From assembly GCF_017348835.2 (NCBI RefSeq), contig NZ_CP071375.1: a stretch of 64,000 nt of DNA; one strand, 5' to 3'. The position numbers were made by a program, and so were the translations under genes. This DNA is from Escherichia coli (GTDB taxonomy: Bacteria > Pseudomonadota > Gammaproteobacteria > Enterobacterales > Enterobacteriaceae). Under the pieces are notes generated by a model, which did not search any database, had not been told where the DNA came from, and saw only the letters and a program-made list of their open reading frames with translations. Positions 43,945 through 49,106 of the stretch are shown here, in pieces; position 1 is the first letter of the stretch, and each line of letters begins with the position of its first letter.

Positions 43945-46835
<2,891 letters not shown>

Positions 46836-46844
46836 GCAACCGTG

Positions 46845-46924
46845 CCGGATGCGGCGTGAACGCCTTATCCGGCCTACATGTCGCACGAACTATGCAGGCC
46901 CGATAAGCACTGCGCATCGGGCAA
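46845..46924. repeat. REP/BIME element downstream of ascB, at the left edge of the accessory insertion
   Basis: gccggatgcggcgtgaacgccttatccggcctac plus a second, inverted, more degenerate unit. Confidence 0.7.
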
Positions 46925-46948: not shown

Positions 46949-47368
46949 TCAAAGAAACCATTCCGGCTTAACGCCAAATCGGGCTGAAAGTGCCTTAATG
47001 TGGGATATTGTCAGGGATCGTTGTCCAGACAAAATCTGACTAACCAGGGATTTAGAGCCGATTTCGTTCTTCAAATCCGCATAGGTCAGATTATGTTGAT
47101 CAATCAACGTGCGAAGTAACGCCACGCCAACCGGCATTGCCGCAACGGCTTTGTCGAACTCTGCAAACTTTTCGTTGTTGTTTTCATACTCTGCAATGCG
47201 GCTCGCCAGAAAGTCGATAAGTGGATTGGTGTCATCTTCTTCAATCAAATATTCGACCAGTTCCAGTGCTTCACGATAATCATCTTCTGAGTCACTGCCT
47301 CCCAGAAAGGGGACTGCATTGACCAGTTCTCTTGTTGCTTTAACAGCGCGTGCAGCATTAGCAGTCAT
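46949..47368 (-). CDS. HigA-like antitoxin (XRE-type HTH at the C-terminus)
   Basis: 139-aa ORF resembling E. coli HigA (AVPFLGG...ALELVEYL...EFAEF...LLRTLIDQ...GSKSLVSQILSGQRSLT); overlaps the upstream toxin gene by 4 nt. Confidence 0.8.
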   Translation of the reverse strand: MTANAARAVKATRELVNAVPFLGGSDSEDDYREALELVEYLIEEDDTNPLIDFLASRIAEYENNNEKFAEFDKAVAAMPVGVALLRTLIDQHNLTYADLKNEIGSKSLVSQILSGQRSLTISHIKALSARFGVKPEWFL

Positions 47369-47676
47369 TCTTTGTTCTCTCTGTAGTAACGTGTCAGTTT
47401 GTCATACTCTGCGTGATTCGTTATGTGCTTCACAAAGAACCGCTTATTAACAAAGTTTATGTAGGCAATAACCCTAAGATTGTTCCCGCCGACATCCAGA
47501 ACGTACCATTTGTTGCGATATTTAAAATTGTCGAGGTTGGGAAACGCCGTTCGCATTTCTTCTGGCGTAGAAAAATCCGTTTCCTTAATAACCCGATACA
47601 ATGCCTGAAGAGCCAGAGCGTCGTTAGGATATTTACGCGCAGACTCTTCAAATGGCACTTTAGAAATGATGTGCAT
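47365..47676 (-). CDS. HigB-like mRNA interferase toxin (RelE/ParE superfamily)
   Basis: 103-aa ORF resembling E. coli HigB (MHIIS...KYP...FPNLDNFKY..K.YV.DVGGNNLRV...EYD); toxin-first order and 4-nt overlap with the antitoxin. Confidence 0.8.
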   Translation of the reverse strand: MHIISKVPFEESARKYPNDALALQALYRVIKETDFSTPEEMRTAFPNLDNFKYRNKWYVLDVGGNNLRVIAYINFVNKRFFVKHITNHAEYDKLTRYYRENKE

Positions 47677-47680
47677 TTTT

Positions 47681-47784
47681 AAGTTTTAACTTCCTTATAG
47701 TAAGTAAACAGCCACATCTGCGAGTTCTATCCTCATGTGTTCGGAAACTATAGCTCATCAAATCCAAGTTCACAATATGTAAAC
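47681..47784 (-). promoter_or_regulatory. Putative higBA-like promoter/operator region
   Basis: Minus-strand -35 ttgtga, 16-bp spacer, -10 tatagt; inverted repeats gttcaca-ata-tgtaaac (47768-47784) and aagtt-tt-aactt (47681-47692) overlap the -35 and RBS regions. Confidence 0.35.
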
Positions 47785-47837
47785 ACTTGCGCGTGATATA
47801 ATTACCCCCAAAATCCTCATAACCACTCTGCAAAAAG

Positions 47838-48611
47838 TCAGTTCTGATTCACCCCATCAAGCACATCCCCCTTTATCAAGCAACGCTGCGTCAGCGACAG
47901 ATCTTCCGTTTGTGTGTCGCGCCCGGCGATGGGTTTGAGGACGAGTTTACGGTTGGGGGTATAAGTAAAGCGCGTGAGCGCGGGATAGCTTAACTTGCCA
48001 AACCAGCCGTGAACACGCTGCCATTTGGCGTCTTTTACCTGATACAGACTGGTTATCCAGTAACCAGAATTAAACTGCATATCCAGCAATTGCGTGTGAC
48101 CATTGCCTTGTAAATCCAGCAAATCATCTACGCCAGTTTTGCTTGCAGTGTAGAATCCCCAGGGTTCAAAGACACAGGGACGGCCTTCGTGCGTGAACGT
48201 CATGAGGATTAAATGTGCATAGGGCGCCAGACCATTACCGGCACTTGGCAACCAGATAACCAGATCCTGAATGCCGTTACGATCCAGATCGGCGCGATAG
48301 AGCTGCCCTTTGCCCGCCATATTTGCCAGCAACCCCACTGGCACCGTCCAGGATTTACCCGCGCGGTCTTTAGCGGTTAATTGCCAGTAATCCTCTTCAT
48401 TTGGCATCTTCTCAAGCGTCACGCCAGCAACGCCGATTTTTCTAAAATGCCAAGTTTGCTCGGTATAATAAGGCATGGTCAGGAGAGGTTTCAGCGCCCG
48501 CTTTTGCGCATATTCGCTGCCACTCATTGGCAGATATTCGGTAAAGCTGGTGGCCTGTGCAGACTGCACTAAGCTCAATAAAAAAGCGCACATCCCTGTT
48601 CTGATGTTCAA
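47838..48611 (-). CDS. Exported protein of unknown function with Sec-type signal peptide and two DxDxNG-like repeat motifs
   Basis: 257-aa ORF; TTG start at 48611 or ATG at 48593; signal-like CAFLLSLVQSAQA; motifs ADLDRNGIQDLVIW and DLLDLQGNGHTQLLD; Trp-rich. Confidence 0.6.
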   Translation of the reverse strand: MNIRTGMCAFLLSLVQSAQATSFTEYLPMSGSEYAQKRALKPLLTMPYYTEQTWHFRKIGVAGVTLEKMPNEEDYWQLTAKDRAGKSWTVPVGLLANMAGKGQLYRADLDRNGIQDLVIWLPSAGNGLAPYAHLILMTFTHEGRPCVFEPWGFYTASKTGVDDLLDLQGNGHTQLLDMQFNSGYWITSLYQVKDAKWQRVHGWFGKLSYPALTRFTYTPNRKLVLKPIAGRDTQTEDLSLTQRCLIKGDVLDGVNQN

Positions 48612-48635: not shown

Positions 48636-49106
48636 TTATTCTTCTTCCACCGCTAACTGCGCAAATCCGCCGTTCCCTTCCCAGCCTTCCAGTCGTTGAT
48701 AAACGGTTTCTACCGCATCTTTAATCGGCTGGGTCATTGGGTAGTAAAAGCCGACGATATCCGGCTGGATGCCGAGAAAAATCACCTCGCCAATATCTTC
48801 TTTCAACTGGTCGATAAGATAGTTCAGCGGCATGTTATGGGTAGTCATCATAAACATTTCGGCGATATCATCCGGATCGATGATGCGGATCTCGCCGGGG
48901 TTTAGCCCCATATCCGTGGCGTCGACAATCAGCAGTCGTGTCGGGCGCAGTTCGCGGATAGCGACAATGTCGTTTTCCGGTGCGCTACCGCCGTCAATCA
49001 CCACCCAGTTGCCTTTCGGCGCGGCGGCGCACTTTTCCGCCAGCAGCGGACCTGCGCCATCATCGCCCATCATGCTATTGCCAACACAGAGTAAAACGTC
49101 AGTCAC
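48636..49106 (-). CDS. hycI: Hydrogenase 3 large-subunit maturation protease HycI
   Basis: 156-aa ORF recognised as HycI. Confidence 0.95.
   Translation of the reverse strand: MTDVLLCVGNSMMGDDGAGPLLAEKCAAAPKGNWVVIDGGSAPENDIVAIRELRPTRLLIVDATDMGLNPGEIRIIDPDDIAEMFMMTTHNMPLNYLIDQLKEDIGEVIFLGIQPDIVGFYYPMTQPIKDAVETVYQRLEGWEGNGGFAQLAVEEE

Follow-up and report, generated by a model that had tools for sequence, protein, structure and literature searches.

A chromosomal toxin-antitoxin gene pair of the HigB/HigA family, closest among studied relatives to Salmonella SehA/SehB, between ascB and hycI of Escherichia coli

A single pair of HigB/HigA-like genes is present in the whole 64-kb stretch of Escherichia coli DNA analysed here (the window). 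An ORF listing places both genes on the minus strand, at exactly the coordinates of the original prediction, and in the arrangement that it had described: toxin first, antitoxin second, with a 4-nt ATGA overlap. The features of the locus are as follows.

47365..47676, minus strand: toxin gene, 103 aa, Pfam PF09907 HigB_toxin family, SehA-like subclade
46949..47368, minus strand: antitoxin gene, 139 aa, HigA/SehB type, with a C-terminal XRE helix-turn-helix
47365..47368, minus strand: ATGA overlap of toxin stop and antitoxin start, read from the sequence (...gaATGAct...)
47747..47775, minus strand: candidate sigma-70 promoter (-35 TTGTGA, 17-nt spacer, -10 TATAGT; 9/12 consensus match)
47768..47784, no strand assigned: candidate antitoxin operator, a 17-bp palindrome GTTTACA-TAT-TGTGAAC (GTTTACATATTGTGAAC) overlapping the -35 box
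47693..47709, minus strand: possible degenerate second operator GTTTACTTACTATAAGG, with the GTTTAC left arm only, overlapping AAGGAAG

Upstream of the pair are ascF and ascB, on the plus strand; beyond it are a gene for a hypothetical protein of 251/257 aa and then hycI-hycH-hycG, on the minus strand, giving the layout ascB / toxin-antitoxin (TA) pair / hypothetical / hycI. The K-12 higBA site is a different one, fadH / higA-higB / rlmG. Over a 25-kb part of the window, strain PE164 (NZ_CP114128) matches at 100.0% identity and F2_81 almost as closely, all other matches being at or below 98.2%; in PE164, fadH and rlmG are adjacent, and the canonical higBA is absent from between them. RefSeq (PGAP) already names the toxin (WP_096220540.1) a “type II toxin-antitoxin system HigB family toxin,” and the antitoxin a “helix-turn-helix domain-containing protein” or, sometimes, a “HigA family antitoxin.” An NCBIfam scan of the toxin, the antitoxin and their neighbor matched nothing meaningful; since NCBIfam has no equivalog model for the pair, the PGAP toxin name must stem from other evidence. 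The hypothetical gene beside the pair is an unrelated one, with zero family matches in profile scans. An Rfam scan gave only a sub-threshold match to the REP-derived naRNA4, outside the operon.

The assignment of the toxin to the HigB-type proteins with a RelE fold is well founded. The HMM search proposed with the original prediction returned PF09907 alone from Pfam (E=1.8e-23, model positions 4-73 of 74). The four motifs by which the toxin had been recognized, KYP (residues 15-17), FPNLDNFKY (45-53), VGGNNLRV (62-69) and EYD (90-92), are all present, and align gap-free with K-12 HigB (NC_000913). Overall identity to K-12 HigB is 40% over 99 aa (BLASTP, E=9e-30) and that of the antitoxin to K-12 HigA 46% over 134 aa (BLASTP, E=2e-45), in line with the 40-50% estimated by eye; both values, and the ascB-hycI rather than fadH-rlmG site, bear out the view of a diverged paralogue away from the K-12 locus. 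Among solved structures, the toxin aligns end-to-end with the E. coli/Shigella HigB entries 5IFG, 6KML and 5YCL (phmmer, E about 1e-22). The AlphaFold model, for which 46 homologues were used (pLDDT 89.9; order a1-a3, b1-b3, a4), superposes on 5IFG_A with a TM score of 0.92 and an rmsd of 1.0 A (Foldseek).

The antitoxin likewise has the domain expected of it, a C-terminal XRE helix-turn-helix (Pfam HTH_3 at residues 85-138, E=7.9e-9), and a peptidase domain is absent. It matches the HigA chain 5IFG_B across residues 9-138 (phmmer, E=2.5e-35), and its N-terminal domain can be inferred to mediate dimerization and toxin binding. It is 46% identical to Salmonella SehB and 75% identical to the copy on plasmid pC9_001. 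The SehB residues needed for repression/DNA binding or dimerization have been defined experimentally (PMC7160566), and eight out of eight are conserved here. Observation and family assignment alike are thus confirmed, with two refinements: to judge from sequence, the nearest characterized relative is Salmonella SehA/SehB, K-12 HigBA being farther; and the module is no rarity, but a common, ordinary and already annotated member of a known TA family, uncharacterized by experiment.

The closest relatives in sequence are plasmid and phage copies in Enterobacterales, 78-80% identical in the toxin and 75% in the antitoxin (pC9_001). Relatives of the toxin, with identities of up to 80%, are encoded in 1,046 plasmid records (Klebsiella, Leclercia, Enterobacter and others). 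On the Klebsiella aerogenes plasmid pC9_001 the toxin is 79% identical, and the pair adjoins repA and has the 4-nt overlap too; in the 93.8-kb genome of Cronobacter phage JK004 the toxin is 78% identical. In a protein database clustered at 90%, these sequences form a dense clade across Enterobacterales, all with PF09907. The literature searched yielded no experimental characterization of the plasmid and phage copies.

Promoter-like sites are no more numerous in the region than shuffled expectation, and the predicted promoter is a weak consensus match. The 17-bp palindrome over its -35 box, found by a custom scan (an inverted-repeat search at default-like settings missed it), is the sole match at no more than 2 mismatches in the 64-kb window, where 0.17 would be expected. 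It recurs upstream of the pC9_001 copy at 17/17 positions, though the flanks no longer align, and upstream of the phage JK004 copy at 16/17, and is likely to be the operator. The 7-3-7 palindrome frame is common to the window pair, K-12 higBA (GTTGCCA-N3-TGGCAAC) and sehAB (GTTTTCA-N3-TGAAAAC), and the inner bases differ; the same frame with different inner bases is the pattern that would be expected of insulated paralogous repressors. The pC9_001 copy has a good second palindrome (GTTTACAAAATGCAAAC), of which the window keeps the left arm only, a weak indication that 47693-47709 may be a degenerate second operator. The AAGGAAG that it overlaps is Shine-Dalgarno-like and 13 nt from the toxin ATG, so that translation of the toxin may be poor. 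The ATGA overlap of the two genes, in turn, implies probable translational coupling.

Our main reading, to which we give a probability of roughly 0.5, is that the pair is an intact chromosomal type II TA operon with SehA-like action, whose toxin belongs, within the HigB family, to the YgjN/SehA branch and whose antitoxin is of the HigA/SehB type. That it is a functional type II module of some kind is very probable, the toxicity, neutralization and repression being those that its sequence would lead one to expect. In the proposed scheme, one promoter would transcribe toxin then antitoxin, with translation coupled via the ATGA; an antitoxin dimer would hold the toxin through its N-terminal domain, and would repress the operon at the 17-bp palindrome over the -35 box. 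When the antitoxin is depleted, free toxin would act on the translation apparatus and growth would slow. The most likely target of the toxin would be RNase III, as for SehA, and the toxin itself would not cut ribosome-bound mRNA.

The model for this target is a 2026 report (NAR) that SehA has no endoribonuclease activity of its own and is not an mRNA interferase (PMC12817084). In that study, SehA blocked the cutting of the 16S leader stem by RNase III in vitro, rnc was required for toxicity, and 5′-end sequencing showed cleavage not to be enriched in coding regions (PMC12817084). The traits taken here for the SehA/SehB subclade include RNase III dsRBD binding and rnc-dependent toxicity. A consequence of the report is that “HigB-like” names a fold and a family and leaves the target unsettled. 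Eight alanine substitutions abolish SehA toxicity: Y53, D61, H88, Y91, K93, T95, Y97 and Y98 (PMC12817084). The window toxin is 58% identical to SehA, of equal length (103 aa) and with shared residue numbering, and all eight of these residues are identical in it; K-12 HigB keeps four, and has N61, F93, V97 and H98. Most of the eight are borne by the a4 helix, predicted with high confidence at 88-101 (AlphaFold) and almost identical in sequence in the window toxin (HAEYDKLTRYYRENKE) and SehA (HAEYDKLTAYYRGNKE). Across the family, sampled without bias as 112 representatives of 50%-identity clusters, the D61/K93/Y98 combination is confined to the subclade of SehA and the window toxin, and K-12 HigB sits in a small “NFVH” group. 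The presumed target is highly conserved: the RNase III proteins of E. coli and of Klebsiella, a stand-in more distant than Salmonella, share 96.7% identity.

Another possibility is that the toxin works like K-12 HigB (YgjN), as an mRNA interferase within the same TA architecture. K-12 HigB cleaves mRNA in a translation-dependent manner in vivo, cutting only translated mRNA and mostly between codon positions 2 and 3 (PMC2814082), and the two toxins share a Pfam family and a near-identical fold. After HigB, the structural neighbors of the toxin model are Cami1, YoeB and RelE, weaker and distant matches (Foldseek), but ribosome-dependent RNases; R68, H88, Y91 and K56, invariant across the family, resemble the basic/His/Tyr catalytic set of RelE-type enzymes; and the failure of purified SehA to cut naked RNA is also what would be expected of a ribosome-dependent enzyme. 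R68, H88 and Y91 are nearly universal among the 112 representatives and fit a RelE-type active site equally well, so only four positions discriminate between the mechanisms. At these four SehA-critical positions, the window toxin sides with SehA each time (4/4), and it is 40% identical to K-12 HigB as against 58% to SehA, for which the sequencing and the rnc-dependence described above speak against mRNA cleavage (PMC12817084). An action like that of K-12 HigB is a credible reading, with a chance distinctly below even.

The SehA-side residues, together with the higher identity, favor SehA-like action on RNase III with moderate confidence. Residue conservation says little about binding, since SehA Y53A and Y91A lose RNase III inhibition and keep binding (PMC12817084). 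The RNase III mechanism comes from one 2026 paper, on a homologue 58% identical to the toxin; for RNase III rather than mRNA as the target, we put the odds at even or a shade below.

With either target, the pair could in principle have a role in anti-phage abortive infection: a phage would free the toxin, and the infected cell would stop. PADLOC matches the toxin to PD-Lambda-2_A (E=1.5e-15) and the antitoxin to PD-Lambda-2_B (E=2.4e-14); PD-lambda-2 protects against lambda-vir (PMC9519451), and relatives of the window pair are borne by plasmids and one phage genome. The antitoxin, however, spans only 9-115 of the 402-position PD-Lambda-2_B profile and lacks its peptidase domain, and the third gene is absent at the window locus. 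The logic of PD-lambda-2 is also the opposite one, B being toxic and A rescuing (PMC9519451), and the flanks of the window pair are hydrogenase and sugar-utilization genes and no defence island. Such a role is accordingly rated as improbable. Membership in PD-lambda-2 proper was considered separately and rejected: it is a three-gene system, in which B fuses an HTH to a peptidase, next to a HigB-like A and a P4-antitoxin-like C; the locus has only A-like and B-N-terminal matches.

Across the species, the module is common and variable. The full pair is found in 1,091 of 5,426 complete E. coli genomes (20%), CFT073 among them, where the pair is complete and the asc operon is missing; at least the antitoxin is found in 2,508, and the antitoxin alone in about 1,400 (about 26%). 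In this set each carrier has one copy, on the chromosome and at the ascB-hycI locus, without exception. Canonical higBA is full in 2,825 E. coli genomes and reduced to higA and a truncated higB in about 1,550 more, and both modules are complete in at least one strain, Z142-6. No study of the ascB-hycI pair was found in the literature searched, E. coli TA surveys included; a survey of AIEC strains listed other “higA” pairs and not this one, and gave canonical higB as missing in CFT073. At least six structural states of the locus occur among the strains compared:

State 1: full pair plus hypothetical gene
State 2: pair without the hypothetical gene
State 3: orphan antitoxin plus hypothetical gene
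State 4: orphan antitoxin plus hypothetical-gene remnant
State 5: hypothetical gene only
State 6: empty (K-12, BL21, O157:H7)

Two independent deletions, given in window coordinates, took the toxin together with the promoter and operator:

Deletion A: 47404-47814, shared by O104:H4 and KKo003 down to the junction
Deletion B: 47398-48429, in ST131 JJ2434

Loss of the toxin at least twice in E. coli lineages indicates that it is dispensable. One and the same antitoxin protein (WP_000126294.1) is encoded in PE164, O104:H4, ST131 JJ2434, KKo003 and Ec-U18; between paired and orphan contexts its gene shows as many as 15 synonymous changes and 0 non-synonymous ones, and the antitoxin pN/pS is 0.03. 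Two orphan alleles with one shared junction differ by 8 substitutions, all synonymous, a sign that the antitoxin stayed under selection once the toxin was gone, although recombination could explain part of the pattern. The window toxin is also under purifying selection, in comparison with the CFT073 allele as well as with the plasmid copy (pN/pS 0.13-0.27). Conservation in 1,091 genomes and purifying selection place the pair far beyond chance.

These population data bear on a further reading, in which the pair is a domesticated or decaying plasmid addiction module, its toxin without host function. Selection would then be on the antitoxin, either for regulating transcription or for anti-addiction immunity in which it neutralizes and represses homologues arriving on plasmids or phages. 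It would fit the number of genomes with the antitoxin alone as against those with the pair, the repeated deletion of toxin and promoter, the identity of the antitoxin protein across distant lineages, and the 8/8 synonymous substitutions between orphan alleles with a shared junction; it would also fit the abundance of plasmid and phage copies, 75-79% identical and with the same operator arms, and the position of the pC9_001 pair beside repA. It is less easily squared with a window toxin that is full length, keeps all of its critical residues and is under purifying selection, or with orphan antitoxins that have lost their own promoter, and recombination could account for part of the synonymous-only pattern. 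As an account of the window pair it is rather unlikely. A bolder combination takes the window toxin, with the plasmid and phage relatives 78-80% identical to it, as part of a widespread clade of toxins that inhibit RNase III as SehA does and are not mRNA interferases; the chromosomal antitoxin, kept under purifying selection where toxin and promoter have been lost, would then serve as anti-addiction immunity, or as a cross-repressor, against incoming plasmids and phage-plasmids with the same operator; this we regard as speculative and unlikely.

The SehA-like TA operon that we prefer barely changes the annotation, RefSeq having already named the pair HigB-family. What is new is the affinity to SehAB and to the plasmid copies, the predicted RNase III target, the shared operator-like palindrome, and the orphan-antitoxin polymorphism. 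Of two paralogous PF09907 modules, one of the K-12 HigBA type and the other SehAB-like, natural E. coli strains may have either, both or none. Between these modules exactly four SehA-relevant residues differ, which makes them a test case for whether such toxins are mRNA interferases or RNase III inhibitors, a question opened in 2026. Orphan-antitoxin polymorphism, combined with an operator common to plasmid and phage copies, is a concrete and workable setting in which to examine anti-addiction as a role for remnants of chromosomal TA modules.

Of the systems with which the pair may be compared, HigB/HigA of Rts1 (Proteus vulgaris) shares the name, the toxin-first order and a RelE-superfamily fold. 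Rts1 HigB belongs to Pfam PF05015, and the Rts1 antitoxin has its HTH at the N-terminus. An Rts1-type HigB was considered for the window toxin and set aside, a Pfam scan giving PF09907 only and no PF05015 match; because the two belong to different Pfam families, the catalytic residues of Rts1 HigB are not transferable to the window toxin. PD-lambda-2 (Vassallo et al., 2022) is related through its A component, a HigB-family homologue, and through the N-terminal part of B, homologous to the window antitoxin. K-12 HigB/HigA (YgjN/YgjM; 5IFG, 6KML) is like the window pair in family, fold, gene order, 4-nt overlap and two-domain antitoxin, and the K-12 higBA and window operons are 728 nt each; it is unlike it in sequence (40%/46% identity), in locus, in having only 4/8 of the SehA-critical residues, and in its operator arms (GTTGCCA). 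The plasmid and phage copies, nearest in sequence, are on mobile replicons, whereas the window copy occupies a fixed chromosomal site, once per genome. One of its palindromes is intact, and its 5′ leader is ~70 nt long; in pC9_001 both palindromes are intact and the leader is short.

The closest studied relative is SehA/SehB of Salmonella Typhimurium (STM4031/STM4030), with identities of 58% for the toxin and 46% for the antitoxin, and with the same Pfam family, toxin-first order, 4-nt overlap and 7-3-7 promoter palindromes; the RNase III mechanism has been demonstrated for SehA alone. (A sehAB paper by De la Cruz et al., 2013, is marked as retracted and was left out of the evidence.) SehB is annotated with a longer N-terminus than the window antitoxin. 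The two pairs are at different loci, sehAB between yiiD and fdhE and the window pair between ascB and hycI, and are thus homologues or paralogues and not syntenic orthologues; their operator arms also differ, GTTTTCA in sehAB as against GTTTACA in the window, from which it may be predicted that each would regulate itself in insulation from the other.

At the ascB-hycI locus (46949-47814 in the window; also the comparison loci L004, L005 and L009), the antitoxin gene stands without a toxin gene in about 1,400 complete E. coli genomes. Toxin, predicted promoter and candidate operator were removed by two independent deletions, corresponding to window 47404-47814 and 47398-48429; the orphan antitoxin protein is identical, the differences seen being synonymous only. 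Toxin loss at the canonical higBA site follows the same pattern: there higB is often truncated with higA retained, the full module being found in 2,825 genomes species-wide versus about 1,550 with higA only. In strain PE164, identical to the window, the canonical fadH-rlmG site (L006 646995-650260) lacks higBA altogether.

The surroundings of the pair include several further features:

Window 46844-46873 and 46898-46922 (within 46830-46922): two REP-type hairpins, where ascB and the antitoxin gene converge
L004 (O104:H4 2011C-3493) 1276-2256: IS621 (IS110-like) insertion, between ascB and the orphan antitoxin, beside the REP elements
Window 47838-48611, minus strand: hypothetical protein gene, 251/257 aa, between toxin and hycI
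Window 48636-49106: hycI

One of the hairpins has a sub-threshold match to Rfam naRNA4 (41.9 bits; the gathering score is 59.5). Synonymous divergence in hycI among PE164, CFT073 and O104:H4 is 0.20-0.25; typical divergence of E. coli core genes is much lower, and the asc-hyc junction (hycI and its neighbors) therefore appears to be a segment that is highly diverse or undergoes recombination. In CFT073 and ST131, the asc operon is absent.

The hypothetical protein has a signal-peptide-like segment at its N-terminus and no match in Pfam, NCBIfam, PADLOC or PHROGs. Nucleotide identity among the PE164, CFT073 and O104:H4 alleles of its gene is only 85-90%, with a pN/pS of 0.2-0.3. Its presence or absence is independent of that of the toxin-antitoxin pair, and in ST131 it is truncated.

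The 2013 PLoS Pathogens paper naming sehAB, the Salmonella relative of the pair, is flagged as retracted (PMC3868539), but continues to be cited by later SehB and SehA papers for operator-binding and virulence data.

Putative operator regions of paralogous HigA/SehB-type repressors were compared at four loci:

L002 4457-4640: putative operator region
L007 2850-3003: putative operator region
L008 3815-4003: putative operator region
L013 2884-3003: putative operator region

Judged from their sequences, the operators of these paralogous repressors appear to share one common frame, GTTnnCA-N3-TGnnAAC, within which the inner dinucleotides differ. The inner dinucleotide of the putative operator is GC in K-12 and TT in sehAB, while the window, the plasmid copy (Klebsiella aerogenes pC9_001) and the phage copy (Cronobacter phage JK004) all have TA; across putative HigA/SehB-type operators, this dinucleotide may constitute a simple specificity code.
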